Of a DNA stretch of 64,000 nucleotides, positions 24,481 through 64,000 are shown piece after piece; position 1 is the first letter of the stretch, and every line of letters begins with the position of its first letter. This DNA is from Psammoneis japonica (Eukaryota): positions 1-64,000 of the forward strand of contig QPGO01000037.1 in the NCBI GenBank assembly GCA_008632985.1. Reading direction: 5' to 3'. The position numbers and the translations under genes are program-made. The notes below the pieces were generated by a model. It did not search any database, was not told the origin of the DNA, and was given only the letters and a program-made list of their open reading frames with translations.

Positions 24481-27383
24481 ATTGGGGCAGTGGACTCAGA
24501 TGAGGACAAGCTTTTCTTGGCATCAGCCAATCCTCTTCCAGCACAATGACCAGCCAGGACAACAGCATCACAGAAGAACAACAGAGCAGCAGACTGGGCT
24601 CTGGGCTCTGGAAGATGAGTTGGCCAGCTGGTGGGTGACAGAAGCGCAATGAGGATTGTTGTGCAAGTGGCTGAGGATGCAGGAAAATGACCAATTGCAG
24701 CAAGGGCAGGTGCATTTGGTGCAATGCACCCCCCTGGCAAATGTCTGCTGCATGGCCCAGTTGAAAATGTGCTGCTGCATTGAGCAGCACTGGAGTGTTG
24801 CCTTGGTCTTGTCAGGTCCTCATGCAAAGGTTGGACAGCGTGGCTGCAAAATCAGAAACAAGACACAAAAAGGGCACAAAGGGTGTGTGTGCTCAACTCA
24901 TTTCACAAACAAAAATTTCACAGACTGCACACAACCTCTGTGACATTGGAGCATGTTCGCCTGTGCAACTCAAGCCAGGGTGGTCATTGCTGCTTTTTTA
25001 GCTCAATTTTTGCCCAAAAGGCTCGTGATTTTCTGCTCAAAATTTTTTTGCCATGCTTGCATCATGGCAACCATGGCAAATTTGGATGATGTGGGTGAGT
25101 GCAATGGAGGGGGTCCATCCACAAACTCTTGTTCATTTTACATTCCTTGTGCATCAAAGGTCAGATGCACATCAAATGTTTGTGGACACCCCACTGCATT
25201 TTAGAAAATGAACGGCACATGTCTGCTTGTGCCACCACAACATGTTCATGTTCCAATGCTTGTGCTGTGTTGATTTTTGCATTTCAGGCAAGGCAAAGAA
25301 ATGCCAGAGAGCTCAAGATGCAATGTAAAAAGGCTCAACAGAGTTGTGGTGAGCATGGATCACTGAGAAGAGGACACTTTCAGCCATCTTGCTTCAAGCC
25401 AGAAGTGATGAAAACTGTGCCGGATCTGTGACATGCTCCAAGGATGCACAAGTCAGTTGTGTGCCTCACACCAAATCTCCAGCCCATCCTTGAGTCAACA
25501 AATGACTTCTTTTGCAAGCTTGTGTGAGTGTTGTTGTCCACTGACAAATGTTTGAGTGATGATGTGTGTCCACACTGTTGTGCTCATGCTCTGTTCTTTT
25601 CTCACATTTCTTGTGGAGCATGCTCAGGGAAGTCAAAGAAGTGACAAAAAAGTCAAGATGCAAGGCAAGGCTCAAAAGAGTCACATGGCAGAGAATGTCT
25701 GTTGAGATGGCCATGTCACCACAAAGGACCCTGTGTTGAGTTGTCTGGTCTCTATCTGCTCAGCACTGGCACAGGATGTCTCCACTGATGCTGTGTGATT
25801 GACCAACTCTTTTTTGAATTCATGGCATTTTTGTTGGTGACAGTCCTTGGTTCAGAGTGGCAGAAGAGGCATGTTGCGGCAGTGCTGTCATGTGGAGTGT
25901 TGTGTTTGACAGTTTTCCAGTGTTGTTGACATCAAGTTGCCTCCATTGAACACTTTCTCAGCATTTTGGCATGTGGCAGATGAAAGCAACTGTTCTCCAG
26001 CCAACAGCTCTCCAACAGCTCTTGGCTGCATTGCAGCCTGAACACCTGAGCACCTGAAGCCAACTGTCAGTGCCTCACAGAATGAGATGACAAAGAAAGT
26101 TGGCAGCACAAATGCAAAGCTGAGCACATTGTGGCTTGTGGTTGCTGCTGCTGCTTCCACCACTGCCACTCAGAGGTCTTCTTTTCCTCAGCTTCTTCAC
26201 CTTCATTGGCAATGTCAGTGCCTGATCATTGGAAATCTGCTCCAATCAGATGCTGGCCAGGGCTTTTGTGATTCTCCAGCATGGCACACAAAATCAACAC
26301 CATCTGGAAATGGGAAAGACAATGCAGCTGTTGCAGGTCACCTCTTTTTTGATGCAAGTCTGTGCACTCTGACTGCAAGTGTGCTTGGGAACAGGCATGC
26401 TGTCTTCTGAACAACGCACTCAAAGAATTGATTCAGGAATCTTCAGAGTGCCAGTGCAGATCATGCTGTGGACAACAAAAAGGTTGTGGCAGAGCTTGTT
26501 GATTGTTGGAAAGAGATGATTGCACATGTGAAATGCAATTTTGTGGCATGCATGAAGCATGTGGCATGTGTGCAGAAGATGATGATTTGAGAACCAAAGC
26601 CCTTTTTGCAAAACTGGAGCTAAAAGGTGGGGGATGACCTGACTTAAAAACATGTTGACATTTGGATTGCACATGCAGGGAGCAATTGCAAAATTAAATC
26701 ATGTGTTTTTTGTCAAAAATTGTGCACAACATTTTCATGAAGGTCACACAAAACAGATCAATAAAATGCATCATTGTGGCCATTCTTTTTCAATGTGCTG
26801 CTGTCAAAGAATTGAAAAGCACTGGCAACAGAGTCACAAATTTTGATGGGAAGCATGGTTTGAATTTGTGGTGGGGTGGGCTGGCTCTTCCACTGGAACA
26901 ACACCCAAGTTTTGACCTGATGAACAAACAAGTTGTCAACAACCTGCAACTGCAAAATGTGGCAAGGAAGAAGAAGCAGAGGGAAACCTCTGGCAACCAA
27001 GGGCAGTGGCAGCATTGAAAAGGACAAGAGCAAGTGGGGGCACCAGTCTGCAAAATGAGAAATTGAAGAGGTGGCACACAAAGAGCTGCTTCCAGAAGCA
27101 AAATTCTGTGCAAAGGTCAACATGGCCAGTGGTGGAAAGACATCAAGGCTGGTCCACAAAAACACAGCCAGTGTCAAATTTGGCAAGTAGTGCCAGGTGG
27201 AAACAAGGGAAGACTGGGCAAAAAAGTGTGCCCTGTGTTCCATCAATGCAAATCAACACAAAGAGGAACACTTTCACGCAGTCAATCTTGAAGAATTTGC
27301 TGAGTGACAAGCAGCAAGTGAGTTTTGCACTCTGCAGTTACAAGACATGGCTTTGAACACTTGTGTCATGCATTTGTTAAGTT

Positions 27384-28340
27384 GTGTCACCAGCTGAGCC
27401 AGCCAAGGGTGGCAAAAGCCCCGTGAAGAGCAAAGGAGGACATGGAAGAGGACAAAGAGGCAAAAACAGTGAGAAAGCAGCTGCTTGGGATGACTCAACC
27501 ATGAATGCAGTGGTTGAGGAGAAACAGAGGAACAAGGGCATGCACAATTGGCTTTGTGACAATGCACTCAAGTTCTGCAAGAGCATGACAGTTTGGAAGA
27601 AAGATGGCAGAGACAGGAAACAACAAGGTGATGGAGCTGACTGCAGCAAGTGATGAGGCTCTTGGGCTGTTGACATTAGAGAGCTGCTGAAAGACATGGG
27701 GGAGCACAAGGCAATGAAGGCCAGGAAGATCCAAGAAGGAAGACAGGAAAACAACAATGAAGAAAAGCCACCAGATCCTCTCTGCACAAAACTCACAAAT
27801 GATGCAAGACATGAGGAGATGAAGGAACAGAATCTCTGCACAAAACCCACAAATGATGCAAGACATGAGGAGATGAAGGAACAGAGCATTTCAATGAGTT
27901 GCACAGCAATGTGCAAGAGGACAGGTCAAGTGAGATGGGTTGGAGTTCAACGGTTGGTGCAGCAGGAACAAGAAAGAAGAATGCAAGAAAAAGGGAAAGA
28001 AAGAAATGACCAGGAAGAAGCTGGCACAGAAGGAAAAGAAAGCACAGGCCACATTGGAGCTGCCAAGCAATGACAAGGATGGCAAAGGAGGAAAGAAGGA
28101 ACAAAAGATCAGGATGAGAAAGACAACGCCAGCCATGACAAGAGTGAGGATGCAGAGGGCAATGATGAAGTCAGCAAAGAAGAGCCTGGCAGAAGGGAAG
28201 CAGTGCAGCAAAAGCTTGACAGCAGTTGGACAGCACCAAACAGTTGAGTTGCAAATGAGCCACTGTCCAACCAGCCTTGTTGGCAACAAGCAGCAATGCT
28301 TCAGAGCTTGGCAACAAGAGAGGCATTGGTTGATTTAATG
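27384..28340 (+). pseudogene. Decayed transposon accessory ORF (charged, Lys/Glu-rich)
   Basis: Broken frames containing PLCTK...ARH...SISMSCTAMCKRTG and a K/E-rich tail, within block A. Confidence 0.35.
27780..27885 (+). repeat. 54-bp direct tandem duplication
   Basis: ctctgcacaaaac(t/c)cacaaatgatgcaagacatgaggagatgaaggaacaga at 27780 and 27834. Confidence 0.9.
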
Positions 28341-31285
28341 CCAACAAAATTGACAACATGAAATTAAACACAAGAGTGCTTTTGCTGGTCAGATTTGGCA
28401 GGGGCAATGTTGTGCAATCTCATGGCAAACAGGAGAGGGTTCTGACAGGGATGGAGTGCATGTTGATTGGAGCAGGGGGGCCTGATGCTGACAGCAGTGA
28501 GAGCCAAAGACACAGTGGTAGACAGTGCCTGCATGGTGTCCATTGTTGATGGTTGGGGAGAACAACAAGATTCAATTGTCTGCATCTGAGCCAGCCAGTT
28601 TGCCATTGCCTGAGTTTTCAACATGAGAGGGCACATTGCAGTGATCAAGTGGGCTTTCTTTCACAGCAAATTTTCCACTTTTTAGAGACACTAATTGTCA
28701 ACTGTGACAGACAGCCAGTTGCTCAGATGGTGATGTGTTGTTGCCTGTCACAGATGCCAATTTTCATGTCCACGCTGTTTTGGCACCCCCACCACCAGCT
28801 CTTCCTGCTGTTGAAGCTGAGGCAGGCCTCTCTCCTCCTTGTCCTTGAGACACAGTGCTGTCCCTCACAGATTCTGTGGTGCAGCACCAGGCAATCCCTC
28901 CACCAACCACCTTTGTGAGGCTCTGCTCAGGTTGTTGACTTTGCCACAGATGTCAAAACTTTGTGCAATGGTCATGGAGTCACACAGCATGTTGACAGGC
29001 ATCCACATCCAACTGGGCTGACACATGGTGACCAGCCTGAGCACTTGACAAAGTGCTGCAAAATCTCAGCATCATCTGCACTGACAGGAAGAACCAGAGT
29101 TTTTAGGATGCTGCTTCAAGTGCAGATTCAGAGTTGGGAACTCAGGCATGTTGCGCATTGCCTCAGCAGATTGAAGGTGCATTTTAAGAGCACTGGCTGT
29201 CACCTGGTGGCAGGGCTGGAGTGCAAGCTGAGAAAGAATGCGGCAAGTGCACTCAAGAAGGACTCCATGAAAACTGTGATCAGCACCCCCCCCCCCTGCA
29301 GATGTCAGCATGTTGCTGGCAATTTGGGTGCTGATTTTTGTGCTGTTTGGGAGTGCCATGAGCTCCTGAGTGGCAACAAATGGCAACACCTTGCTCTTAA
29401 TTTTGGGCATCTGTTTGTTGAAATCATGCTGCCATGACTCAAATGTGGCAAAATGATGTGTTTTTTGAGCTTCAATTGCACATTGGGAAAGCAGTCCAGC
29501 CAAACACACAAAACAGCTGCACCCAGCTTGGGGTGGCAGACTCATGGGTGCAGCACATGTGGTGTCATGTTGACAGCACTCAGACAGTTGGTTGGGGCCC
29601 ATCAAATCCTGTGGAACAGCCCATGGCTGGGAAAATGCTTGCTTTGACAGAAGCTAAAGAGGAGCAAAGCCATCACTGTCATTGGTCCTCTGTGCAGAGC
29701 TCCACGCATTTTGGTCTGTAAGTTGCCAGCTCACGCCAACATTTGTGGTGATGAACTTGCAGCAGGCTGCTGTGACCACATCCCAAGTGATGCAATCAAA
29801 AGAGACCACTCAACAGTGTCTGTTTGATGTGCCAGTTGCAGGAAACAGCAACAACAGCGTGTGACAGCTTGCAGCTCCAGTTGTTGATGGAACAGAACAG
29901 CTCAGCAGGAGACTTGCACACACACCAAAATCATGATTTTCTCAGCCATGTGATTTCAGATTTGAGCTTTTGTTGAGTGAGGAAAACACACCCAGGAGAA
30001 AAACATCAAGTCACAGGAGGCTCTCATTTTTGGATTGAGGGTGGTCATTTCCCATGCCCATCCTAAAATCACTGTGTCACCCAAGTGAACACACAAAAGC
30101 CATTTTCACACATTCACAACCAACCACACACAAAAACAAGAACACATCAGGAGGCACCACAGTCGAGGCACAAAAATGATGTTCCACCCTTCAACAGCAC
30201 CAGAAGGATCCCAAGAAACTCTGCTGGAGTCAAGCATTGGCACCAGGTCACAGCAACAAAGACTCCTGCTCTGACTGTGAAGCCCATGAAGTGTGGAACA
30301 TGATGCTGGAAACATGGCGGGACAATCCACCCCAGCTTGTTTGTGAATTTCTCAGTCGTGTTGACAAGCAACATGCAACCCGCTGCATCAACAAAGATGA
30401 CTCCAATGTAGATTTGAAAGACTTGGCTCTCTGTGATCCCGGCTTTCTGAATGTTGTCAAAAAAGTTGCAAAAAAGTTGAGTGCTGGATTGCCACAGGCA
30501 GTGAAGGCCATCTTGAAGACAGAGGCAGGTTGTCGTGACACCCGACACCCAGCTCACCCATGCCCAGTTGCATCAAAAGCAGAAGCACACAAGATGGATG
30601 GAACTGAAAATGCTGGAAAGAACAGCTTTGTTGGAACTGCTGCTCTCTCTGATCCTGTGTGTGTGCGCAGCTCCGCTGAGATCAAACTGCGGCCCGGTGT
30701 CTGCAGCTCTGATGCCAGAGTGCAAAAAGTTTGTGTCAGCACTGGTCAGTGCACTTTGGAGTGCAAAGTGGCAAAGGCTGTTGCCCATGCATTGGCCATG
30801 TCAAAGGGACTGGAGCCCATTGCAATGGGAAGCCAAGTCTCTCGGCATCATCTGCGCTGACAGGAAGAGCCACGCAGAGCAGCTTTTGGCGCAGTGCTCC
30901 AAACAGAGAAACAGTGCTCTGACCACACTCAAGAGAGAGGATTGATTCTATCAAAACTGTGATCTGCACCCCGTCTTTACTGATGTCAATGTGTTGCTGG
31001 CAAATTCTGTTGCTCTTTTGGCGCCACATTGGGAAACACAGCGATTTGCCAAACACCAACCACAGTCGCATGCATGTATGCGCGTGCGTGCGTTCGCGTT
31101 CGTTCGCAACCAAAAATGTGAACTGCACATCAGCCCAACTCCGATCATTTCTATCATGTCGCTCATTTTTTTCTTCCTTGTCGCTTATCGCCGCACCTTG
31201 GACCTTACTGCCACCATGAACCATCACCTCACTCCTCCCGCTTCTAGCCTGTAGCAGAACAAGAGATTAAATACATACAGAAGCT

Positions 31286-42393: not shown

Positions 42394-42488
42394 NNNNNNN
42401 NNNNNNNNNNNNNNNNNNNNNNNNNNNNNNNNNNNNNNNNNNNNNNNNNNNNNNNNNNNNNNNNNNNNNNNNNNNNNNNNNNNNNNNN
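42394..42488. other. Assembly gap (95 N) preceded by a poly-G run
   Basis: Run of N in the sequence. Confidence 0.99.
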
Positions 42489-49633: not shown

Positions 49634-51038
49634 CTAAATGTCATCATCGACAAGTGCGTGCATCCGTAGCGCTCTTCCAAGGGTGGTTGTAGCTGGGCAT
49701 GTTTTCTTGAAGAGCAAGGAGTGGATTCTTGCCACGTACAAGGGGTGATAAAGGTCGTGGAGTGAAACACTATACGTCGCGGCCGCTTGTAGCTCTGGCT
49801 TTGGTCCGACTGGCCCATTGACCTTGTGGTTTGGATGTTTTAGTTTTTCCCAGTAGGCTACTTGCTTTCCGTAAAAGGACTTGTGTCCTCCTCCAGAATG
49901 TACTGTAAATAGCGTGTTTGGATCCACTCCATGGTATTGCTGTTCACCCGTTTCTATGTCTCGTGTATCGCCCCCGACAATACTCAAATCTCGAAAGCAA
50001 TTTGAGATCATTCGATCTTCGTGTGAAACCTTGGCGTGTGGACTGCATCGCGGAAAGCCCTCGTTTACGATCATTTTCAGCGCAGCTCGATTGAGAGTAT
50101 ATCCTGGTCGACCTGTAACCATGTAGGAAGAGGCTTTGTCTCTGGCCCATTCACCAAGAAAGAGAGGATCGGTTGCATTCGTTTGTGTAGCCGTAATCCC
50201 CGCCAAAAAGTACCGAAAGTTTTCAACAATCATGTACAAATCATCACCACCCAAATGAAAGAAATCATAGTCTTTCTCATAATTGTTGTAAATATACGAC
50301 CAAATGCTCCGCGTTTTCTGCCACATGTTGTTGTAACTCTCTTCGCCCTCGTGCAACAAATCACCAAACCCAAAGCAGGGACCGTCTCGGTGGAGAATGC
50401 CAAGAACCCATCACACTTGTACCCCCATGATAACGCAGTGGTTCGCAGCAAGTCATGCATTGAGGATACGTGTATATCCCACAAAAAATTCTAAGTCGTC
50501 TTGCAGAATCATCATTGTGTATGGCTTCCTTCCAAATTTGGATCTTTTCCATCAAGAGTTTGTAGCCTCCATCTTTTTCAAAGCCACGACCAGGGCCCAT
50601 GGCACAAACATACTCTGCAGACAGGATTTCTCTTTTCGTTTCCGTCGTGTTGCGGATATCAGTCTGATAATTCTGCAAGAGATTCCAATACGTTGTATCG
50701 TTTATCGTGCGGCCCTGATTGTTTCCTCTCAAGAAGAAATCTTCAACTCCGCGACGCAGAGCTGTTGGGTCAGCAACGTAACCAAGAGTTCCATTCGAGT
50801 ATCGAGCTCCGGCATGAGGGTGTGGTTTCAGAAACGACTCGAATCCTGCAACGTCCTTTTTCTTTTCTGCTGGTTTTTCGGTTGATGGCCTCGGCGTGAG
50901 TTCTTCTGGATGAAGAAGTTGTGTGGTGCTGTTCAGAATTACGTTCTTCAATAGCGGAACATAGAATAATAACGCCACAAACGCGAGAAAGGGATATATC
51001 AACCAACATCGCAACTGTCGATTCATCATCTGCCGCAT
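49634..51038 (-). CDS. Core-1 beta-1,3-galactosyltransferase/Fringe-like GT31; two apparent frameshifts near 50470 and 50360
   Basis: Type II anchor, RIFCGIYT, SWGYKCDGFLAFS, HEGEESYNNMWQKTRSIW, YDFFHLGGDDLY and EDRMISNC spread over three frames. Confidence 0.85.
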
Positions 51039-51204
51039 TACTATTGCCGAAAAACAATGGCCTGTTGCTAGGAATCGACCGTCGTCATTGGCAAAACGTG
51101 AATGTGAATTTTTGAAGCCGAGATAGATAGATCTTGATGCCATCGATGTCGGTCCGTCGTCCGAGCATTCGATGCGTCCCTCCACGCTGTGAATTTCATT
51201 CAAG

Positions 51205-52700
51205 CCTCTGTGCTCAGATGCACACCACCAAAGGTTAGGGCCCTAGATGGGGCCAGAGCTGCAACAAGGAACTCACCTGAAAAGGCCAGCCACGATGGCT
51301 CTTGGTAGCCACAGTGCTTTGCATCCAGCAGCACCCTCGGTGCCTTTGGCTTGCAGCTGTTTGGTTGGCTGGTCTTGTTTTTTGGGAAACAAGGTGAGAT
51401 TGGGCCAGATCAGCAAGAGAGGCACCTTGCAAGACGAGCCAAACAAGCTCTCAAGCCACTGCCTTGTGTCTGTTAGTGCAGAAGGCAAAATGCCCCCCCT
51501 TGGTGCATGTCTGGCTTCAGCTTGCAGCGTGGTTTTCTTGCCTGGCTGGCCCTCTTGTTTTCTGAGATCAAGGTGAGACTGGGGCCAGGTCTGCAAGAGA
51601 CTCACTTTGCAAGATGAGCCAAACATGGCTCTCAAGCCACTGCCTTGTGTCTGCCAGTGCAGAAGGCAAAGGAGCCCCCTTGGTGCATGCCTGGCTTCAG
51701 CTTGCAAAATGTGGTTTTCTTGCCTGGCTGGCCCTCTCATTTTCTGAGATCAAGGTGTGAGAGACTGGGGGGGCCAGATCTGCAAGAGACTCACCTTGCA
51801 AGATGAGCCAAAACATGGCTCTCAAGTCAATGCCTTGTGCCTGCCAGCACAAAGAGCAAGAGACACTCCTTGGCACATGCCTGACTTTGGCTTGCAGCAT
51901 GGCTTGGCTGGCTGGCTCTTTTGTTTTGGCACACCCCTCTGCTCTGCAAAAGTGAGGAACGAGTCTGCTGGTCTCAGGTTGCAGACAACCCAGGTGAGGT
52001 TGGGCCATGTCCACTGCAATGCTGGTCTCAGGCTGCAGACAACCCAGGTGAGGTTGGGTCATGTCCGTCACAAGGGGCTCATCTTGCAAGGGTCAAGCAC
52101 AGCTCTCAAGCACCACTGCCTTCTTGTGCCCAGCAGCAGCAAAGGTCCCTCTTGCTTGGATGGCACCCCCCAGCTCTCACAGCTGCTTGGCTGGTCGGTG
52201 GTTGGTTTTGTTTTGGCACCCTTCCACCCTCAAATTTAGATCTGCAGCCCCAGAGATGCCCAGCAGCACAGCAGAGACCCCCGCTGGTGCCGTGGCTTGC
52301 AGCAGCTTGCCAGCTTGCTGTGGTTTCACCTTTTTTCAGTGGCGGCCTTCCACTCCTCAGTTGAAAACGTGAGCACACACACAAACCACAATGCCCGACT
52401 GGATGGTGATTGATTTCTCAACGGACACCCACAAAAACAAACACAACCCACAACAAGACAAGCGACAACAAACCACCACCCAAAACAGAACATTCCATTT
52501 CAACCATTGCTGCAATGCCAAACACTGCAGGTTGCATTAATTCCAAACAATGAGCCCAAAACAAAAACAAAACCATTCTGATTCGACAACATGCATTCTT
52601 GGGAGCAAAGCCAAACATCGGCATGAACGCTTGCTCAACTTTCGAAGCATTGGTGGGTTTGTTGGCCGGGCATTTGTTTCTCACCCATGCGCCATTTGGA
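51205..52700. repeat. Block B core: CpG/TpA-depleted repeat with ~180-bp tandem units and a 54-bp duplication
   Basis: Units beginning caaggtg at about 51390, 51569 and 51751. gctggtctcagg...catgtcc repeated at 51967 and 52021. Confidence 0.85.
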
Positions 52701-53500
52701 GGATCTCATGAAAGTCGTTGCTAGAAAGGTGTGCCAGGTGACTGCACTTTGCCAGGACACAACCACAGAGGTGGAAGGCCCTGGATTTGGATCGGGTGGA
52801 ATTGGTGGCTTCCGGCATCACGACCAAAGAAGAAAGTGAAGGTCAAGGAACAACCGTCGTGCTTGGCAACCCCGGTTACGGCAAAGCACAATTTCAAATT
52901 TTCAAATGTCAGTGGTGAGAAGTTTGTGCAAGCCACCTTTCAGTTCCCCGAGACTCCTCATGGCCCGATGGAAGTGACGTTTGCAGAAGGAGGCTGCACG
53001 ATGGACAAGTTCATCCAAGTGAACCAAACGTTTCAAACCGAAGACGACAATTGCACGTTTGGAGAGAAGATTGCGCTCCAAGGAAAGCCCTTGCGAAAAT
53101 GCATTTTCTCTTTGACCGAGTCCCTGATGATTTTGAGCTCAGGAAAAGGTCCGGGAGTGGAAAAGGTCACAAGATTGGGATGTCAGTTTATCGGACCTAC
53201 GACATTGTGGAAAGCGATGCTGATGCCCCGAAAGGGACAGATTTACGCCGGTTTTTTGGGGAGAAATTACATGTTTGTATTTTCACTGGAAAAATCACTG
53301 ATATTTTAAGCGATGGTAAGACCTTCTTACATGATGTCAACACTTTTGAGGGATGTTCCGGTGCTGTGGTCTTTCTACTTGACCAAAACCAACCAGATGG
53401 CTTCGATACAAGTCTCGCGGGCATGGCAGTTGGAGTCCATTCTGGAGGGGTTGATGTGAACAATAACATTGGATTCAAGCTACCCAGACAAGCACCATAG
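52620..53500 (+). pseudogene. Trypsin-like serine peptidase gene with intact 3' end and degraded, TpA-depleted 5' half
   Basis: VTAKHN (His motif) in one frame; HDVNTFEGCSGAVVF...VGVHSGG in another. Confidence 0.7.
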
Positions 53501-53770
53501 TTGCTACTGTTGGGTGCGGTGTTGGGTGACAAAGATAATACCTGTGACCCTAACAGTATGGAGAATCCACTCCTTAGTGAAAAGATGTATTGGGCGAATG
53601 CTGATGGTACATTAGCAGATACCGGTATTAATCGATTTGATGCGTTATATGTTACTCATCATGGATGTCGAGCCCGTGGACTCCTACTGTAGCGTATGCT
53701 AGCTAGTGTCCTCAATAATTCCCTCAAACTTAAGAGGCGCAAGCTAAGAACGATAGAAGAAAACTTTAAC

Positions 53771-54604
53771 CTAATCTTTGTCGGCCAATTGCTTTTCAAG
53801 ACTCTCCACTTTTTGCTCTAGTTCCTCGATTCTTGGCAAAAGTGCCACCAGGGCGTTCTCAGAATACTTTCCAAGTACATCGACTTCGATATTTACAAGA
53901 CCACCAACCATTTTGGCGGGGATAATGATTTTCTTTTGCGTGTATTCCACCAGCATAAAGGTAAACCATAATTCCTTTTGATTTACCTCGCAAACTGTAA
54001 GAGACGTGCCATCAATAGCCACAAATCCTTTTGGAACAATGTAACGAAGCAATTCAGGCGAAACTTTGATTTTGTAAAAGAGCGAATCCTCGTCAATCCA
54101 GCGATCGATGACTTCACCCACACCATCCACGTGTCCCTGAACAAAGTGTCCCGAGTTTCGACCCCCAATTTCACTGGCTCGTTCTAGATTCACAGCATCT
54201 CCTGGTTTAAGGGAACCGAGATATGTTTTTCTCAACGTTTCGGGCGCAAGACCAACTGTAAATGTATTGTCCTCGTGCAGCGACGTTGCCGTCAAACACA
54301 CGCCACTGACACAGATACTGCAGCCCAGATAGGCTCCATCCAAGACCACTTGGCCCTCCACAGTGAGTTCGGTACCATGTCCTTTGGATCCATCCCACAA
54401 GGGCATGTCATTGCGTTCTTCAAGAGCCACGACGGTCCCCATTTCTTCGACAATCCCAGTAAACATGTGACGACGAGACCAAGTAGTAGTGTCTCTGCTT
54501 TTTGATGTGGATAATACCCCAAGAGGTGAAAACGCGGTCGTCCTTTCCAGACTAGCACATAAAACGGCAATTACAACACATTTTAGTATACGGCAAGATA
54601 GCAT
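53771..54604 (-). CDS. ribE: Riboflavin synthase (alpha chain), plastid-targeted
   Basis: Signal peptide ending TTA-F, then MFTGIVEE, SICVSGVCLT, VNLERA, GHFVQGHVDG, KGFVAIDGTSLTV and VNIEVD. Confidence 0.96.
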   Translation of the reverse strand: MLSCRILKCVVIAVLCASLERTTAFSPLGVLSTSKSRDTTTWSRRHMFTGIVEEMGTVVALEERNDMPLWDGSKGHGTELTVEGQVVLDGAYLGCSICVSGVCLTATSLHEDNTFTVGLAPETLRKTYLGSLKPGDAVNLERASEIGGRNSGHFVQGHVDGVGEVIDRWIDEDSLFYKIKVSPELLRYIVPKGFVAIDGTSLTVCEVNQKELWFTFMLVEYTQKKIIIPAKMVGGLVNIEVDVLGKYSENALVALLPRIEELEQKVESLEKQLADKD

Positions 54605-54900
54605 GGTGGGTTGCAGTCGCAAGAGATTCAACACAACGATTGTGAAGACGCGTGTCGCAATTTTGATTTTTGATTTTTGTGAAGGGGGAGCACGTACGTA
54701 CGCCTCACGCCTCGCGGACGCTGGAGGTTCCAACGCACAGAGGACAGACGCGTTTCAATCATGCCAGTTTAGTTTACCGTATGTAGTCGGGGGGATCGAT
54801 TTTGCGGAGAAACGTCAAAAACGCCAAAAACAGCAAACTGCAAAAAATAATCTGCAAAACTCATCAACCATCAACACTCTCTATTATTGACAACACCAAC

Positions 54901-55586
54901 ATGAGCGATCTTGCCCCATTTGTTGCTGCTACTCTTCGAGACAAGGTCGTCGAAGATCTTTTAGAGGAGAACAAGCGCCTCCGGAAAGAGATTCAGGAAA
55001 ATGCAAAAGAACAGAACGAAATTCTTGCCGATGAGGCAATCGGGGCAACGACCAATCACTTCGCATTGCGGTTGCGGGTCCCGCTGTAGAAGGCCAAAAA
55101 TGTGTCGTTTACGCAACTCAGCCCTTGGCCCCGATTTCAACGTCGAAATTTTGGACAATCAATGACTGCACTTTGGGCGACTTGTCTGACGCCCGAATTT
55201 TTGTAAACGGCGACGATTGCGGATCTTTTCTGGGGGAGGGTAAAATTGGCTTTGTTCTGAACATTGACTTTACATCCTATAACAACGAACCGCCTCGCAA
55301 AGAGATCAAGTCTCTTGATGACATTGATCTCCCATCTGGAAGCAAGGACTTTGCGCAATTCTCTGTTTCGGAATTCCGCTACGGGGCTGGTCTCATATTC
55401 TTTGAACTCAAGGGCGTTCCAAAGCATAAATGGTTTGAGCTAGCTGAGATCGACTTGAATGAGTACCTCGCTGCACCATTCGAAATTGACATATTGACAG
55501 TGAGCTTCTCGTTGGGTGAGCTCATTGAGTTCTTTGGCGCCGAGACTGAGGTCTTATTTCTGGATGCAGATGACATCTTTCGCTGA
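54901..55586 (+). CDS. Hypothetical protein of the diatom MSDLAPFVAA family; frameshift near 55040
   Basis: MSDLAPFVAATLRDKVVEDLLEENKRLR continues in another frame as QSLRIAVAGP...VVYA... into ORF 55125-55586. Confidence 0.6.
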
Positions 55587-56059
55587 CTGGTTTCAATGCG
55601 TGATTTGGTGTAACGCGGTACATCAGAGAACAGAGCAACATGGCTCCAGGTCTTTGTAGGATCCCAAACACTGACACTTTCATGGAGAGAGAGTTATTAA
55701 TGGCACTTGTGTGCGTTGATTCGCAATGAGAAAGTGACTTTGAGTTTCTCTTAGCTGGCTCCCAAAGTCTTCAGTATGGAAAAAAGTTACGCGTCATCTT
55801 CTCGTTCGTATTGTCTGTGTCATGTAGGACTGTTTCGTTCCGACCGTTAAATTTACAGTTACGAGCACAAATGAGCATGGAAAGTATACGTGGCTGTATA
55901 ATGTGACGAATTGCACACGAGTTGTTGAGAACTTGGCGAGAGACAGATAGCAGCCACACTGCTAGATTCTGTTGACGAACATCTGACGCATTCTACACAT
56001 CGTCTACGCAATTGGCTGGCCATGGTTAGGCCAATGTTCAAATCAAGCATTAGAGAAGC

Positions 56060-57500
56060 AAAACGGCTTGCTGCCAGAGGCAAAAGAACCATTGCAAGTT
56101 GTTTCGGGGCGTGGCATCACACACCCTCGGGTGATGCCGATCCTGGCTGATCGCCATGTGCTCCTGCCGCACTGTTGGTGCACTGGGGATGTGGGTTAGC
56201 TTGTTGCCGGAGTTGCAAGGTGGAAGCACAGCAGCACTTTAAACACAGAGTTTTGGCTTTGTTTTGCCTGCAGTCCACTGTCTCACAATTCGCGATGACA
56301 CTTGTTTTGCTGCCCATGTCGACATGTTCCAGGTCTAGAGGTGGGACCTTGTGCTGCTGAACTGTGACATCGACAGTTTTTTTAATCGCGTCACATGTCG
56401 CGCACGCACATTTCTGCATGATTTTGGCAAAATTTTGTGTCATTTTACAGTGCAGTCATCAGGCGATCCATTCAACAACTTTTGACATTTTTTTCTTCTA
56501 CGCCATTCTCGAGTGTTTAAAGAATGGTGCAGGGCAGGCATCATCCAAAGCTTTGAGTGTGCACAGGGACATGTGTGCTGCAAACTTGGCCATTTGTTTT
56601 TTGTCGAAGACAAACAAATTCATTGACCAGAGTGCGAACCACAGAGCTCGCACGTAGAATTCTACGGGGCAAATGTCACAAAAAGTCCCGGTGTGCCACC
56701 TCTGGGACTGGAACCCGTCTGTCATTGTCATTGCTGTTTGTTGTTGCTGAGAGCGCCTCTTTCACAAACCCTGGCTGCAGAAAGTGCAAGAGTGCTTGAA
56801 GTGTGCATGGAGCAGCCAATGACAAAGAAGATGTTTGTGCTCAGTGCCACAGCATTGTGACCTCAGATGGAGCACACAAGCTTGAAACAAAATCAGAAGG
56901 GCATTGAAGCTGAAGTTGACAAGGCAATGCCTTGAACATCATGGGCATGATTGCAATGTTGCTCTTTTAAATTTGGGCCTCCAGCTGAGTTTCTGCTCAG
57001 CCCAGATCCTGTTTTCTCTGTTTTTTCCAAAATGTCATGAGTGGGCATGAAACTCATGGTGTGTGCAGCACACATGCAAAGTTTGCTGCACCAATTGTGT
57101 GTGTGTGTTGAATGATCAAGTGCAAAGAGACAAACCCAACAGTGTTCTTCAATGTGTGGTTGCAAAACAACAGAGCTGTGGCCCAGATGTTTGAAAGAGC
57201 CACACACAGAGCTTGTGCAGCACATTTTTTGCCAAAGCAAGGGTGTTTTTTTTTCCTCGTCAGTGTCAATTGTTCCCACACACTCGCTTTTGGGGAAAGA
57301 CAATGGTTTTTGTTCAAAATGCATCTGCAGAGTTCACACCTGAACTCCACAACTCCACCAATGCAGGGGGGGGTGCTGCTGTTGGCCACCCAGCCACAAG
57401 CTTCAAAATGTGCTTCACTGCCAAAACTCTGCACCAAAAAAGGCACTTCAGAAACATGAAAAGAAAAAAAAAAATTTCATGCAAAATTGAGTCGTGAATC
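56060..57500 (-). mobile_element. Block C: CpG/TpA-depleted decayed element, possibly a MULE/Mutator-like transposase
   Basis: Composition as in block A. Remnants LFALDHSTH (cf. MULE ..LDGTH), EKNRENRIWA, and a SWIM-like VDC...KT.C..C....Q.NP.P. segment. Confidence 0.5.
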
Positions 57501-57708
57501 CAGTCGTGTTTCATGACTGAGCATCGCCGACTCACCCGACTAGTTTAATTTTGTGACGTCATCACTCCGCTGAGTCGTCGTCGTCGACGAAAAAGCAAGC
57601 AACATCGTCGTGCTCACAATGGTCTCATCCGACCTCGATGTCGCCGCTTCTGAAAGACTTTGGATCCCATTTATAGCACTGTCACAAAGATAAAGAGAAA
57701 CAGAAAGA

Positions 57709-58389
57709 ATGAGAAGTTATTACAATCGAAGCTTCAAGGCAATAGTGATGAAATCTCAATTAAGTCATCGACGTTCTGTCGAAGCACCAGCACGAGCATT
57801 TTACTTTACAAACACGGAATCAATGAAAAAAGATGATCCATATGCTCAACTCGGACTTACATGGGGCGCAACCACTAGTGAAATCAAGGAGGCCTTCAAG
57901 CAAAAGGCGAGAGACTTGCATCCAGATGTCAACACAACCGATGAACCACAAGTGGCGCTGAGAAAGTTCCAAACGGTGCTTCGTGCTTATAGCCAGCTGA
58001 TGCAAACCAAAGGAGGCTTGCCTCATGATGACGAAGCTATGGAACAATGGTCGTTTTCGGTGTGGAGAAAGGGTGATATCATTGCTCAAGATCGCACCGA
58101 CGTGGCTGGTGTGGCACGCAAGCGCCCGGTTCAGCCGGCCAGTAGCCAGACCAACAAGAACTGGGGCATTGCAGCCTTGGGGCATCCGAATGGAGGAGGC
58201 AATCGCGTTCGTCGAGCAGAGTATCTAGGAGATGGAAAAGGACCACGATCTTCAACGGTTGGTACGGGACAAAGCAAGTGGGTAACACGAAAAGAATTTA
58301 AGCCTTGGAACCCCGATGAAGCACAACTGAAAAGGGCTCAACCTTCGAAACGAACCGTACAAGCGCCTTCTTGTGCCAAAGGACTGTAG
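57709..58389 (+). CDS. DnaJ (J-domain) protein
   Basis: DPYAQLGL...EIKEAFKQKARDLHPDVN...FQ.V..AY..L. Confidence 0.88.
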   Translation: MRSYYNRSFKAIVMKSQLSHRRSVEAPARAFYFTNTESMKKDDPYAQLGLTWGATTSEIKEAFKQKARDLHPDVNTTDEPQVALRKFQTVLRAYSQLMQTKGGLPHDDEAMEQWSFSVWRKGDIIAQDRTDVAGVARKRPVQPASSQTNKNWGIAALGHPNGGGNRVRRAEYLGDGKGPRSSTVGTGQSKWVTRKEFKPWNPDEAQLKRAQPSKRTVQAPSCAKGL

Positions 58390-58968
58390 CTCTGACATGC
58401 CGATAAAACACATTTTATCTGGTTTATTGCGTGATGGACTTGGGATGAAACAAGTTAGTGACAAGTACTATCGGGCTATCGCTCCTTGTAGGACGGGGGC
58501 ACCAGTTGCGTAGCTGCAAATAATGGACCTCAAAAAAGGCGCTGCATTGCGGGGCAACATGTAGCAACAGTTACTAAAGAGATGTTTTTAAAAGCCTGAA
58601 CACCTGGTGGCCCCAAAAACAAGTTGAAATGTCTGGGTCGAGCGGCAAATTGAATCAGACAGCCGGGAAATACAAAGTGCTCCTGACCCGAGCGCGTTGC
58701 GTTGGTCTTGGATGGCATTAGGTCTAATAGGTCGGTGCCTCCATTGGACGTGTGTGTCCGAAGGGTGTTGTGGTAATTGCTTACTAGGCCTACTAGAGCT
58801 CTAGATAGTAGCTATAACTGATCATTTGACAGGTGCTCACGACTCACGACTTGAATAATAGTTGCACGCCTTTGTTGATTCGTGGTTCAAACGGAAGTCG
58901 TGCCGCGTCCGGTCAGTGATGAACCATTGGTCCGACGGAGCCATTATTTGTCCAAAGCAAATCTCAAC

Positions 58969-59550
58969 ATGGGAAACTCGGCTTTCTTTTCTAATTCGAC
59001 AGAGTGGGCTTCAGGGATGCGCCCAAAGCCAAGGAAGATATTGGTGCTTGGTTTGGACGCGGCAGGGAAAACAACCCTTTTGCATAATCTCAAGCTGGGC
59101 GAACCGGTGACCACAATCCCCACGATCGGATTCACCGTGGAAGAACTCAGAACTCAATCCAACAACATTGTTGCGTGGGAAGTGGGCGATAGAATTGGTT
59201 CTCGACTCTTTGAACGTCACCATTTTAAAGACACGGATGGTGTCGTCTTCGTCGTGGACTCGAACGACCGGGAGCGAATGGATCAAGCGAGAGATCAACT
59301 ACACCAACTTTTCAAGGAAGAAAAATTGCGCGGAGTTCCATTGTTGATCATATGCAACAAGCAAGATTTGCCTGAAGCCATGTCACCCCAAGAGATTCTT
59401 CTGCAGTTGGGGGTTCCCAATGATCAAGATGACTTGGAACGACCCATGCGTGCTCTGGGGTGCGTTGCCAAAACAGGTCAAGGACTACATGATGGCTTGA
59501 TCTGGTTATCTGAAGTCGACAAGATTGTACATGATGACATCTCAAGTTGA
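58969..59550 (+). CDS. Divergent ADP-ribosylation factor (ARF)-family GTPase, possibly an early pseudogene
   Basis: MGN start, [28 protein letters not shown] and NKQDLP. G3 motif degenerate (WEVGDR). Confidence 0.85.
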
Positions 59551-59882
59551 GTCCAACGAACCCACTTCCTCGTCCGTACTACATCTTGTTGAGCGGGCGA
59601 GGAAATGCGGGGAGTGGGGGAGAAGTGGAGACTCCAGAAACACACACAGAAGGATGCACCCGGCGACACTGAGTTACCCTTCAACAACCCTTTCTGAAAA
59701 TTGAAAATACCCGACATGAGACATGGATTGCGCGAGACTGGAGATATCATGATTGAAGCAACACCTAGACAATTTAAAAAAAAAAAATACAACACACCAC
59801 ACATACGTTCCACTCCATATTCTCGACTCGATTCACACAGTCACACACAAACTATTTGTCCTTGACGACATCATCATCTTCT

Positions 59883-60338
59883 TCATCCATACGTTGCGTA
59901 TCCGTGCCACCCATCTTTTTTGACGCGAATACAGAGATGAGGGACTGGTTGCGTGTGACCACCATACTGACCATGACTAACGTAACGGTGTTCGACCCAT
60001 TCAAAGGCATCTACTTGATAGCCATATGACTCAAGTTGACGATTCATTTTTGGAACCCATTCCTTTTCGAGACGAGCCACCGAAGCTTCAAACATTTGAT
60101 AGCCACAACACGCCTTGGGAACTTCCTCGGCAATGGTTATTGGAAGACCGTGCGGATCAAAAATATCGCCTTCGAGGAGCTGGCGGGGTGTGGTGGCGTT
60201 GGCCCATTCACTCCCTTCGTCGGCACCGCGAAGAATGTACCGGCGAGGACGAAAGCAGGCGCATTCTTCGTAAAGATAAGCAGCAATTACATCTTCTTCA
60301 TTCTTCCAACGTGGAGTGCAAGAGCAGCAACAACCCAT
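59883..60338 (-). CDS. Hypothetical protein with N-terminal MGCCC acylation-like motif
   Basis: 151-aa ORF from ATG 60338 with normal composition. Confidence 0.65.
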   Translation of the reverse strand: MGCCCSCTPRWKNEEDVIAAYLYEECACFRPRRYILRGADEGSEWANATTPRQLLEGDIFDPHGLPITIAEEVPKACCGYQMFEASVARLEKEWVPKMNRQLESYGYQVDAFEWVEHRYVSHGQYGGHTQPVPHLCIRVKKDGWHGYATYG

Positions 60339-60559
60339 AATTCGTGAGAGTAGGGTGTAGGGCAAAGGAAGAAAGAAGACAGAGATGTTATAATGTAAAG
60401 ATTCTCAAATCTGGAATCTGTATCCAAGATCCGAAAAGAAACGAAGCGCGCGAAAATTCGGCGCAAAAACAAGCTAAGGTTACCTGGTGTGTGTGATAAG
60501 TCAGCGCAAATCCGGGCAGACATGCATTGTGTCCCCCAAAGCACGTGCTTGTAGACAAG

Positions 60560-62390
60560 GTCTTTCTGCTTCGTAGGAATGACACCTCCAAATCGAAAAG
60601 TTTTGCCGCCATTTTTGCTGCTGTTGAGAATGTCCTCTTCAGCCAACAGCCCCCAACAATTTGACTCTGCCTTCACAAATTTGACATCTGGGTGCACCAA
60701 CAGGATGCCAGACATTTCACACAAACAAAGAATGAACTCAGGGCAGATGACCACCAGCAAAGAAGGGCTTTTCCATGATGGCAATGACTGGTTTGTGTGT
60801 GCACCACACCGTTGCACACAAATCCACACTTTTCTTTCCAAACATGGCCCTCTTTTTTCCCCAAATGAAGAACTCTGTAAGAAGCCCCAATGATTGTTGC
60901 AGACTTGCAATGGCGTGCACCATTGTCCACAGCAGTGGTGCAGATGAAGCACTGTTGTCAAACTTGCTGTAACTTGGCACACACAACAAAAAAATTGTTT
61001 GGTGAAAATGCATGGTTTTTGACGTTTTTGCAAAAAAAATCTGCAATTGCCCATGACTCACAACTCACGACAAGCAGTTGTGCACTGTTGCTGGCTCTTG
61101 TGGCTCAAACTTCAAAAGCAAGCAGCCATGCAATGCCCAACCAAGCACTTGTCTAACAGAGCTGTTGTTGGTCACAAAAAGCAAATCTCAACGTGGGAAA
61201 CCTGGCCTCCTTTTGCAATTTGAAATGGTGGGCTTCATGGATGCACCAAAAGCTGAGGAAGATGTCAGCACTTGGCTTGGATGCAGAGGCAAAACAAAGC
61301 TTTTGCACAATCTCACAAGCTCAGCAAACTGACAACCACTGTTCCCACAGTTGGACTCACTGTGGAAGAACCACAGAGCTCAATCCAACATCTTTGTCAC
61401 ACAGAAAGTGGGCAACAGAAGCGGGCCTTGGCTCTCTTTGAATTTCACCACCCATCATTGTCACGGAGCACATGGATCAAGCAAGTGACCAACTGCACCA
61501 ACTTTTTGAAGAGAAAGAAAAATTGCATGGAGCTCTGTTGTTGATCATGTGAAACAAGCAAGATTTGCCCAATGTGATGTCACCCAGGAGATTCTTCTGC
61601 AGTTGTTGGGGGTTCCCAATGATCAAGATGTGACTTGAAACGACCCATGCGTGCTGTGGGATGTGTTGCCAAAACAGGCCAAGGACTAGAAAATGGTTTG
61701 ATCTGGTTCTCTGAAGTTGACAAGATTGCACAGGATGATGTCTTAGTGGAGGCCAAACCTCAAGGCAAAGCTGAGTCTGACAAACCCATGTCCTCGTCGG
61801 TGCCACACATTGTCGATCAGCTTGGTTGCAACCCTTCTGACACCAACAAGTGGAGAGTCCTGTCCTCAAGAGTTTCCATCCTGATCAGCAGAGCACCGAA
61901 TGTCCTTTTGCAAAGGCTGTCAAACTCTGGGGCATCATGTCCAAGAAAATGGCAGCCAATGCTGAGGCCTTGTCAGCATTTTCATGTCATGGGTTTTTCG
62001 CTGGTCTGATTTTTGTTTTTGAAATTGTGCACAGGCAAAAACAATGCACGAACACATTTTCCTTTGAGTGGGTTAATTTGTTGGGCAGTTAAATTCTCTA
62101 ATTCACATGAGTGTAAAACACACAACAGTTCATTGAGCCTGTTGTGCTTTCCAATTTCCAAAAGTTTTGAGAACAAAAACGCGTTTTTGCCGTCAGAGTC
62201 AGTGACTGCGTCCGTCACACAGTCACAGAGGAGAGAAACAATGGACAAACGATGTCGCACAAAGACAGACGATGGCTGCGGAGTGTCCAATCTGAAATCT
62301 TTGCTGTTCCATCAAGTTCCATGTTTTGGTCATCGCACATGACATCTGGATGTCGCACAACGGTCGGGATCAAAATCTGCTCAAAACTCT
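60560..62390. other. Block D: TpA- and (in its core) CpG-depleted region containing the ARF duplicate
   Basis: Near absence of TA and CG from about 60620 to 62100; TA-only depletion from 62160 to 62380. Confidence 0.85.
61050..62009 (+). pseudogene. Hypermutated duplicate of the ARF locus (homologous to about 58835-59600) plus a remnant C-terminal extension
   Basis: Colinear matches such as aagcaaatctcaac, aacaagcaagatttgcc, gggggttcccaatgatcaagat and gttgccaaaacagg. Start ATG->GTG, indels and TGA stops. Confidence 0.92.
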
Positions 62391-62472
62391 AAGTTTGCTC
62401 AACCCAAACACGTCCTGCTGTCCCATCAGTTGTTCTTCGTCGTAAGTTTCTCCTGGCGAATCCCCTTGCACA

Positions 62473-63636
62473 ATGGGAAACTGTCTCCAAGTTGTGGAAA
62501 CCAGAAGCATCGAAAGGGCGGCTAGAAAGGTGGAGGGCGCTTTCAACGAGCTCGTTGGAGCGGAGGGTGATAGTTTCAAAATCGCGGTTGCTCGTGAAAA
62601 GTTGAGTTTTGCAAAGCGCGGTTATGAAATCCGCTTGGCAAAACTTGCGGAAAAAGACATTGACATTGCTCAACGGGAGATCGCTAGAGCTGGTAGTGAC
62701 CGTAACAAAGTGGACGCTGCCATGGAAAAGCGGCGACGAGCAGAGAGCAGATACCAGCGCCATATGGCCAACATTGAAACTCTCGAAAGACCTGCCGTTG
62801 ACAACGCTCAAGTGCACGAGCAAATCACACCGAGCCCTTCGATGAGCGCACTGCGCCATTCTACCGACGCATTGAGTCCTCAGCTTCGAAATCCTTGGGC
62901 CATGGAAAATGGATCGTCTACGATCCAGTTTCGCTCAGACAAGAACAAAGATAGGGACCTGCGTGCTCAAGTAGCCAACCACTACCGGTGTAAGAAGAAG
63001 GATACGAAAAACGGAAAGACTGTTGTTTTGGCCAAGTGCTGCATCTCGCAAGTGGTGGGTGATCACAATCAAGCAACAGCGGTGCATCTCCTGCCCCGCC
63101 GAAGCGCCCCGAAGCTTTTGGAGAGTTTTGACATGGATGGTCATCCTGAAGGAATAGACAACTTTCGCAATATTGTCCTTCTGGCAAAGAACATTGAGGC
63201 TGCATTTGATCGACAACGAGTTTGCTTTGTAAAGAATTTTGAGACTGACAAAATTGTACTTGAGATCTTGGACCCCTCGGTTGAGTCAGAGCCGATTTTT
63301 GATGGTGCAACCTCAGCGATTGGAGAATGTAGGGGGAAGCCAATGCAGTTTGCACAGGGCACAGGGCCATACACGCGAGTTCTGTCGTGTCATGCTGCAA
63401 TGAGCCACGCGGTCGCTAAAGAGAACAAGTGGATTCCGTTTGACAAGGATGTTCCGAAAGAATATTTGTGCGGTTCTCCGCTTCGCGAAGATGTAGTCCT
63501 GTGTTTGAAATATGACTTTTCTATGAGCGGCAAGAGTTCAAACGTTTCTGATCTCTCCATTGCCGAAAATGCTGAAACGAAGCCGACAGTGGACAGCACA
63601 CAAAATAGTGCCACTCATTCTAGTGTGCCTGTATAA
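62473..63636 (+). CDS. HNH-endonuclease-like protein (HNH_2/Crinkler-type C-terminal domain) with coiled-coil N-terminus
   Basis: CCISQ......AVHLLPR...IDNFRNIVLLAKNIEAAFDRQRVCF...ILDPS...PYTRVLS.HA. Confidence 0.75.
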   Translation: MGNCLQVVETRSIERAARKVEGAFNELVGAEGDSFKIAVAREKLSFAKRGYEIRLAKLAEKDIDIAQREIARAGSDRNKVDAAMEKRRRAESRYQRHMANIETLERPAVDNAQVHEQITPSPSMSALRHSTDALSPQLRNPWAMENGSSTIQFRSDKNKDRDLRAQVANHYRCKKKDTKNGKTVVLAKCCISQVVGDHNQATAVHLLPRRSAPKLLESFDMDGHPEGIDNFRNIVLLAKNIEAAFDRQRVCFVKNFETDKIVLEILDPSVESEPIFDGATSAIGECRGKPMQFAQGTGPYTRVLSCHAAMSHAVAKENKWIPFDKDVPKEYLCGSPLREDVVLCLKYDFSMSGKSSNVSDLSIAENAETKPTVDSTQNSATHSSVPV

Positions 63637-64000
63637 GAAGTTGGCCGGACCGAACAAGAACCTCATAGGGTGCGGGAATACATATTTTCACATTATTTTG
63701 ACGCACTGAAACCTATCCATGGTTGCGGACTGATGAGAAACTCAGGCGAGACTCAAGTCGGCGAAAAAGTTGTGACTGAAAATTAAAAATACAGTTTAGG
63801 GCCCTAGTGGTGTTCGCTAGAGAGAGTCTACTGATGATTGTAAAAATCTCAAGGGAGCTCTGTAAGTGTCTAAGCAACCCAAGATGCTATGAGAGGGTAA
63901 TTTTAAAAAAGATGAAATACACTCTACGACTAGGTTCCGAAGATACAGATCAACCGTTGTTCGAGAGGTAAAAGAGATGTCTTGTCTCTTGGTATCTGTG

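Follow-up and report, generated by a model that had tools for sequence, protein, structure and literature searches.

Five segments of a 64-kb stretch of the genome of the diatom Psammoneis japonica (positions 1 to 64,000 of contig QPGO01000037.1, assembly GCA_008632985.1; hereafter, the window) have lost nearly all of their TA and CG dinucleotides, and one of these segments, block D, contains the decayed duplicate of an intact Arf-family gene located upstream of it. The probable explanation, in our assessment, is that two context-specific transition processes, one directed at TpA and the other at CpG, acted in place on both DNA strands and erased TA and CG from the blocks, including the Arf duplicate. 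The direction of change, its dependence on sequence context, and the equal use of the two strands can be read from the pair of gene copies. The analysis covered the 64-kb window of this one assembly together with the contigs of one DNA run.

The Arf gene pair

The intact gene (copy A) and its duplicate (copy B) were paired by local alignment of 58824-59592 with 61039-61816, and MAFFT was used as an independent second aligner. The features of the pair are as follows, with dinucleotide content given as the ratio of observed to expected counts (o/e).

58824-59592, plus strand: stretch of copy A alignable to copy B (gene and short flanks), TA o/e 0.29, CG o/e 0.96
58969-59550, plus strand: copy A, intact 193-aa Arf-family open reading frame (ORF) with divergent GTPase motifs, Pfam PF00025
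61039-61816, plus strand: copy B, Arf pseudogene, 78% identical to copy A, interrupted in frame by TGA at codon 129 and carrying two deletions and several frameshifts
59373-59490 (59352-59490 in a wider delimitation; 61570-61690 on the copy B side), plus strand: high-identity tract, 89-96% identity, possible gene-conversion tract

The alignment contains 729 ungapped columns, comprising 567 identities, 113 transitions, and 49 transversions, and copy B was the sole match to the copy A protein identified in the blocks by tblastn. Fourteen TA sites of copy A could be aligned to copy B, where six read CA, five TG, one AA, and one TC, and a single site was kept. An earlier note on this DNA had counted 10 of 12 such sites as TG or CA; the figure now stands at 11 of 14, the two additional sites lying in the 5′ flank, and all of the examples given there hold. 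Both the TC site and the kept site that it described were recovered, the latter at 59486 and within CTAG in copy B. Its statement that most CG sites read TG or CA also proved correct, as 28 of the 35 aligned CG sites did so (16 CA and 12 TG), with three kept and four changed otherwise. The MAFFT alignment gave 11/14 for TA and 30/38 for CG, again with three CG sites kept.

Context dependence was tallied on both strands, with copy A taken as the source, and assessed by Fisher's test. A-to-G changes were found at 11/28 TpA sites (39%), compared with 14/117 (12%) at ApA, 17/114 (15%) at CpA, and 11/106 (10%) at GpA. This comparison, which the earlier note had proposed as a check, shows that the changes are not equally frequent in all contexts but favor TpA (11/28 versus 42/337 in all other contexts; p = 7e−4). 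Similarly, C-to-T changes were found at 31/70 CpG sites and at 28/268 sites elsewhere (p = 1e−9). Because one hit abolishes the dinucleotide, survival was preferred as the measure of rate; by hand arithmetic, survival of 1/14 TA and 3/35 CG sites corresponds to ~1.3 and ~1.2 events per target base, whereas other A and C bases, calculated in the same manner, underwent ~0.13 and ~0.11 events per base. The excess per target base is therefore approximately 10-fold for TpA and 11-fold for CpG.

If the changes are read as deamination, TG represents an event on the top strand and CA an event on the bottom strand, for TA and CG alike. TG and CA outcomes occurred in a ratio of 17:22 among 39 events, and strand clustering, sought as a sign of processive one-strand deamination, was not found in the pair (22 runs versus 20.2 expected). 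This random interleaving argues against one-strand editing of RNA or cDNA and against a single pass by a processive single-strand enzyme.

Sites reading TG in one copy and CA in the other were also identified. These double flips numbered 12 at 116 TG/CA sites (13 at 114 in the MAFFT alignment), compared with ~1.5 expected from independent neighboring transitions. Three TG-to-CA flips fall at invariant residues and could be polarized to copy B, namely, L25 (TTG to TCA), V47 (GTG to ACA), and W70 (TGG to CAG). The flip frequency of 0.10-0.11 equals the background transition probability per site (0.10-0.125), as predicted if TA and CG are short-lived and resolve randomly to TG or CA. The equality also indicates that the process was active throughout the ordinary divergence of copy B, or else followed it, and did not come as one early burst; it thus persisted or recurred over the life of the pseudogene.

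To polarize the differences, 109 of 120 listed Arf homologues (those of 170-240 aa were kept) were aligned with copy A, and copy B was read codon by codon. A residue was called ancestral when it was present in at least 60% of the homologues, and only nonsynonymous codons were used. The family residue was retained by copy A and not by copy B at 20 codons and by copy B and not by copy A at 5, making copy A ancestral at 20 of 25 informative codons; this outgroup comparison, also suggested in the earlier note, did not show TG or CA to be the ancestral state. On the copy B lineage, CpG sites underwent nine transitions and one transversion, TpA sites one transition (I24, ATA to ATG) and one transversion (L180, TTA to TTC), and other sites 14 transitions and 7 transversions, while three transitions and three transversions were assigned to the copy A lineage. 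Judged from these codons, the direction of change is well supported for CpG, and for TpA it rests on the two polarized sites together with the block-wide evidence described below.

Identity between the copies is uneven. Outside the high-identity tract it is 61-80% over most of the alignment and at most 86% immediately beside the tract. Three of the four TA or CG sites kept by copy B (two CG and one TA) fall within the tract, and copy A itself has no TA or CG over 88 bp of it (59352-59439). The tract could be the product of gene conversion, with either copy as the donor.

Copy A matched the Arf domain with an E value of 4e−50 (170.1 bits against a gathering cut-off of 22.3), and its best homologues share 40-56% identity. 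The switch II motif WDVGGQ reads WEVGDR in copy A; at the motif positions, D and G are present in 109/109 homologues and Q in 90/109. Additionally, T replaces the N of FNVE (N in 109/109 homologues), and H occupies two positions at which Y is found in 108-109 of the 109. Copy A is a divergent Arf member, which may bind GTP without hydrolyzing it. A half-depth contig of the DNA run (31x) joins 58405 to 59734, skipping 1,328 bp (58406-59733) that include all of copy A, and the contig carrying copy A is itself at approximately half depth (33x). Haplotypes thus seem to differ in whether the Arf-like gene is present, absent, or replaced, and given this variable copy number, the label of host-type gene is likely rather than proven.

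A third Arf copy was found in the genome on a 1,597-bp contig of the DNA run, which has 15 differences from copy A in 183 bases (59247-59429) and then matches the 3′ part of copy B and its flank (61631-61981) with 44 differences in 350 bases. Its homology to copy B ends at 61981, past the end of the homology between copies A and B (61816). A search of metagenome contigs for an exact 24-mer common to copies A and B returned no match.

Composition and edges of the depleted blocks

Blocks were called along the window with a two-state hidden Markov model (HMM) of TA plus CG density, which gave five segments totaling 13,553 bp.

20724-23218 and 23376-30842, unstranded: block A, two HMM segments, 10 kb, TA o/e 0.04-0.06, CG o/e 0.02-0.08
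51245-52618, unstranded: block B, HMM segment, with approximately four tandem units of 150-190 bp at 51245-51950
56717-57492, unstranded: block C, HMM segment, 1 TA and 3 CG in 776 bp
60608-62048, unstranded: block D, HMM segment, 1.4 kb, contains copy B, 5 TA (o/e 0.05), 14 CG (o/e 0.18), TG o/e 1.91, CA o/e 1.71

The two segments of block A are separated by 157 bp of normal composition. Across the five segments there are 45 TA and 70 CG, compared with 484 and 762 expected at the normal o/e of the window. The o/e of TA is 0.02-0.06 in the blocks versus 0.53 in the rest of the window, and that of CG is 0.02-0.18 versus 0.98, while TG and CA are raised to 1.7-1.9. GC content is the same inside and outside the blocks (0.480 and 0.479), as is the sum of pyrimidine-purine steps (23.76% and 24.01% of dinucleotides); both are predicted, since transitions preserve the purine/pyrimidine pattern. 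From the ratios of TA and CG to TG plus CA in the blocks (45/3,104 and 70/3,104, respectively), hand arithmetic suggests that changes at TA and CG would run at ~34 and ~22 times the rate of the reverse transitions, if the blocks are at equilibrium.

The blocks have sharp edges that spare neighboring genes. At the left edge of block D (60607/60608), the density of TA plus CG falls abruptly from ~1 per 12 bp to 1 per at least 100 bp, and the promoter-side flanks of the neighboring genes (60339-60607 and 62049-62472) have CG o/e of 0.99 and 0.85. Block D extends 431 bp to the left and 232 bp to the right of the homology with copy A, and both of these nonhomologous flanks are equally depleted. The right flanks of blocks B (52619-53000) and D (62049-62472) are poor in TA (o/e 0.09 and 0.19) and near normal in CG (0.66 and 0.85) over ~400 bp, which indicates that the losses of TpA and CpG are not perfectly coextensive. 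Of 324 differences between the window and the run contigs, 40 were listed, and at four of these, to the right of block B (52730, 52788, 52883, and 52985), the window reads TG or CA and the contigs CG; CpG loss may have been spreading recently at this edge.

The sites that survive in the blocks differ in their flanks. Flanks of the 70 CG survivors match those predicted from TG/CA sites (chi-square p = 0.86), and no TCG-specific bias was seen among them. The flanks of the 45 surviving TA sites are biased (chi-square p = 1e−13), as the following counts demonstrate.

TTAA: 13 observed, 3.0 expected
CTAA/TTAG: 17 observed, 5.1 expected
All contexts containing ATA or TAT: 2 observed, 18.8 expected
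GTAC: 0 observed, 3.1 expected

Either one or more further bases are read by the TpA process, with A before the T being the best context and T the worst, or new TA arises mainly at the junctions of T runs and A runs. At two surviving target sites the window and the run contigs differ in the expected direction (51474, TA versus CA; 60915, CG versus CA). This hints that the process is possibly still running, in a sample of two that is too small to say more.

Comparisons within the blocks indicate that the changes occurred in place. Tandem units of block B differ at the same column by CG, TG, or CA, and also by TA or CA, and several TG/CA flips are present; the units would have acquired these differences once the duplication had taken place. 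Block C has at least one less mutated paralogue elsewhere in the genome: part of it is matched by a 326-bp contig that covers 56728-56943 and carries 6 CG and 1 TA, compared with 1 CG and no TA in the window. Transitions account for 14 of the 16 listed differences between them, and TG/CA flips were seen three times. Together with the outgroup and context tests and the depleted nonhomologous flanks of block D, the tandem-unit differences uphold the proposal of in-place transition mutagenesis made in the earlier note. A further part of that proposal, that the process can strike a host-type gene as well as transposable elements (TEs), held for the duplicated gene, with host-type being the likely description; for TEs no instance was seen, as the ORF searches described below gave no TE or viral protein domain in the blocks.

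A high-copy repeat lies at 55912-56813, where the summed contig depth is 15,000-52,000 compared with ~55 elsewhere, over 1,398 contigs. Within it, 407 bp (56321-56727) are missing from a paralogous contig and end in imperfect inverted repeats of 27 nt (56321-56347 and 56693-56719), resembling a miniature inverted-repeat transposable element. This MITE-like sequence is half depleted (TA o/e 0.24; CG o/e 0.74) though it adjoins block C, and it is therefore probably younger than the block.

Searches of the blocks for coding content were otherwise negative. Pfam analysis of 39 of the 54 stop-to-stop ORFs of at least 90 aa in block A gave no match at the gathering score and two below it (E values, 0.002-0.003), and two ORFs of block D had no Pfam match. 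No match other than the Arf copy was found in the blocks with tblastn of 65 window ORFs, and Rfam searches of 50000-64000 returned none. The edges of block D showed no convincing terminal repeats or target-site duplications. A phmmer search with a 267-aa ORF (24051-24851, minus strand) against 1.84 billion proteins produced one match (E value, 9.3e−4) made up of 11 short stretches, which was treated as noise. A second pairing of block and nonblock sequence (29186-29352 with 30865-31034, where block A ends on the right) was 72% alike and too weak to use. Long open frames do occur in the blocks, because TAA and TAG are almost gone, and gene callers are likely to report them; examples without homologues are 60287-61054 (minus strand, 255 aa), the 267-aa frame above (24048-24851), and 22706-23485 (minus strand, 259 aa).

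Contigs of the DNA run, which were built separately, span blocks B and D at ~55-64x with <1% differences. Over 61052-63073, a 2,024-bp contig shows 13 differences from the window; for block B, the contigs show 5 and 14.

Explanations for the joint loss of TpA and CpG

Under the explanation that we consider probable, block D would be nonfunctional and probably silenced DNA carrying a decayed Arf-like duplicate. A:T pairs at TpA would change to G:C and C:G pairs at CpG to T:A, each giving TpG or CpA, at roughly 10-fold or higher rates relative to other transitions, with all four pyrimidine-purine steps draining into TG and CA. The TpA arm is presumably of the same kind as the TpA-only hypermutation of the chlorarachniophyte Bigelowiella natans, and the CpG arm would reflect methylated repeats losing 5-methylcytosine to deamination, which is expected for diatoms. 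One silencing mark may aim both arms, because they have the same block boundaries.

Several observations weigh against this explanation. In the old pair of gene copies, A-to-G changes are also raised at ApT (20/91), so that TpA is preferred and not exclusive. The outgroup polarizes just two TA sites, one as a transition and one as a transversion. Copy A has changed too, with copy B holding the family residue at five codons, and codon 93 represents a gain in copy A (CA to CG); a few of the 28 apparent CG losses may therefore be gains in copy A. The two CG sites and one TA site kept where the copies are 96% identical point to recent gene conversion or to a process that is now inactive. The ORF searches listed above revealed neither a TE domain nor a viral one in any block. 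The spectrum is not the almost exclusive AT-to-GC change of B. natans, since CpG was erased in the same blocks (28/35 in the gene pair). Finally, the DNA run possibly derives from the same sample as the assembly; its contigs exclude a quirk of the assembler but not a bias at the level of the library.

A bolder version of the proposal, which we regard as rather unlikely, is that, in diatoms, a single silencing-guided system with an ADAT2-like deaminase of both A and C removes TpA and CpG from DNA that is duplicated or foreign, and that this system is homologous to the B. natans process. Both the almost equal extent to which TA and CG decayed in the Arf pair and the common block edges would fit one machine. 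Amphioxus ADAT2, assayed in E. coli, deaminates A (with a GAA preference) and C (with a TCG preference, in CpG context) in DNA (PMC10354150), and one such deaminase could in principle drive both arms. However, its adenine preference is for GAA and not TpA, and a TCG bias is absent among the CG sites surviving here. If the single-deaminase proposal were true, it would point to an ancient mutational genome defense that stramenopiles and rhizarians have in common and that is, in its chemistry, a mirror image of fungal repeat-induced point mutation (RIP).

A RIP-like burst triggered by duplication is unlikely as an alternative. It would involve a homology-sensing system acting at a sexual stage in one or a few rounds, with diatom DNMT4 as one possible example; many diatoms have a DNMT4 that is related to the fungal RIP enzyme RID, groups with it, and has no known function (PMC9998398). 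Every block with recognizable content is duplicated DNA (the Arf duplicate, the tandem units of block B, and the block C paralogue), and the homology between copy B and the third Arf copy runs to 61981, near the block edge at 62048. As in RIP of Neurospora and other fungi, context-specific transitions have struck duplicated DNA block by block and on both strands, leaving pseudogenes. RIP converts CpA to TpA, turns DNA AT rich, and hits every duplicated copy. Here, in contrast, TpA is destroyed (o/e 0.05), CA, the step that RIP targets, is enriched (o/e 1.7-1.9), and GC content is unaltered (0.480 versus 0.479). Copy A, itself a duplicate, was spared, being undepleted (TA o/e 0.29; CG o/e 0.96) and open in its reading frame, and CG is present in the 30-letter loose end of the third Arf copy. 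Moreover, block D runs 431 bp to the left beyond the homology with copy A, strand clustering is absent from the gene pair, and the polarized TG-to-CA double flips, at the background rate, need action after or throughout divergence. On the features tested, the diatom process falls outside the definition of RIP.

It is very unlikely that the composition predates integration, which would make the blocks foreign or retrocopied DNA (a virus or TE that had captured an Arf gene) that underwent editing in the form of RNA or single-stranded DNA, or selection against UpA and CpG, before insertion. Many RNA viruses are reported to avoid UpA and CpG jointly (PMC3829696), and the sharp block edges resemble those of an insertion. 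The targets of hypermutation in B. natans are integrated viruses (10.64898/2026.01.13.699255). Editing of one strand would nevertheless yield one product, whereas TG and CA products are interleaved and in balance (17:22), and selection on a working element is excluded by the broken state of copy B and the changes at its invariant residues. The same changes separate the tandem units of block B, which diverged once they had been duplicated in place, and neither viral or TE domains (in the block ORFs) nor terminal repeats (at the block D edges) were found.

Very little weight is given to two further routes to the TpA losses, namely, misdirected repair of G·T mismatches by a thymine glycosylase at methylated DNA and a TET/JBP-type 5-hydroxymethyluracil at TpA that mispairs with G. 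The thymine glycosylase TDG acts on CpG well above TpG on the strand bearing the G (equivalent to TpA on the strand bearing the T), and dinoflagellates carry 5-hydroxymethyluracil at TpA; the context of the losses fits both. The strong context bias of the surviving TA sites (p = 1e−13) also calls for a sequence-reading enzyme of some kind. Against repair of this kind, strong G·T repair should protect CpG, yet the loss of CpG is as thorough as that of TpA; adenine deamination and these two routes would look the same in this window.

Lastly, although modified bases can give systematic transition-type miscalls on some platforms, the possibilities that modified DNA was misread as TG and CA or that copy A gained its TA and CG are largely refuted, as the blocks are recovered at normal depth in exact k-mer contigs of the DNA run, a gap of 95 N (42394-42488, directly downstream of a DUF6824 gene) is typical of scaffolded short-read assemblies and with these contigs argues against error-prone reads of modified DNA, copy B also differs from copy A by indels and 49 transversions, and the outgroup sets copy A as ancestral at 20/25 informative codons.

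Relation to known systems and genomic setting

The in-place processes at TpA and CpG are best viewed as the diatom equivalent of the TpA hypermutation of B. natans, spatially coupled to CpG decay, near saturation, and observed on a duplicated gene of cellular type. In that species, two integrated viral regions accounted for 231 of 302 new mutations (Mettrop et al. 2026, bioRxiv 10.64898/2026.01.13.699255). Nearly all were A-to-G or T-to-C, all on TpA, at ~1,000 times the background and in some mutation-accumulation lines only, and the genome holds 124 clusters of TpA-poor windows rich in CpA and TpG, many of them unannotated. The targets were integrated DNA of nucleocytoplasmic large DNA viruses (NCLDVs) and virophages, and the authors propose a mutational genome defense based on an ADAT2-like DNA adenine deaminase. 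The available text of the preprint makes no mention of CpG (0 occurrences), diatoms, or a wider sequence context (10.64898/2026.01.13.699255).

The two cases share A:T-to-G:C change at TpA to give TpG or CpA on either strand, the restriction to discrete regions in a genome that is otherwise normal around them (here, five blocks with abrupt edges), and the long-term footprint of stretches poor in TpA and rich in CpA and TpG. They differ in host, a diatom being a stramenopile and a chlorarachniophyte a rhizarian, and in extent, with TA o/e of 0.02-0.06 here compared with a Rho of 0.45 in the NCLDV region of B. natans. The only identifiable victim here is the duplicate of a cellular-type gene, and a wider context is visible, as ATA and TAT were removed and TTAA and TTAG survive. 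Mutations in B. natans were observed directly in mutation-accumulation lines, whereas the diatom case is read from a sequence footprint.

Decay of methylated CpG, known from vertebrates, plants, and diatom TEs, shares with the blocks the change of CG to TG or CA on both strands (12 and 16 of 35, respectively), the confinement to DNA that is silenced (probably so in the blocks), and the absence of flank bias among survivors. Diatom TEs are CpG methylated by DNMT5a (PMC9998398). CpG methylation decay alone would leave the equally complete loss of TpA unexplained.

Searches of the literature did not find joint erasure of TpA and CpG in a diatom, and the B. natans preprint was the sole report of TpA hypermutation found. 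The novelty of the present case lies in the diatom host, the involvement of both dinucleotides, the near saturation, and the copy of a host-type gene as victim. The first report of local TpA hypermutation dates from 2026 and concerns one chlorarachniophyte, and the diatom window would add a second major lineage. The Arf copies provide a natural before-and-after pair in which the process runs to saturation and can destroy a duplicate of a cellular-type gene. Its signature, TA and CG both near zero with unchanged GC and pyrimidine-purine content, can be used to scan genomes, and annotators should beware of long false ORFs in such blocks. Candidate enzymes must reproduce the flank preference by which ATA is removed and TTAA spared.

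Genes in the window are densely packed and mostly without introns. Two of them carry DUF6824. Another encodes a 617-aa Ku protein, whose Ku80 homologues are at most 50% identical; the 58 matches with E values of ≤1e−10 include the named genera Attheya, Ditylum, Cylindrotheca (twice), and Stephanocyclus, all of which we take to be diatoms.

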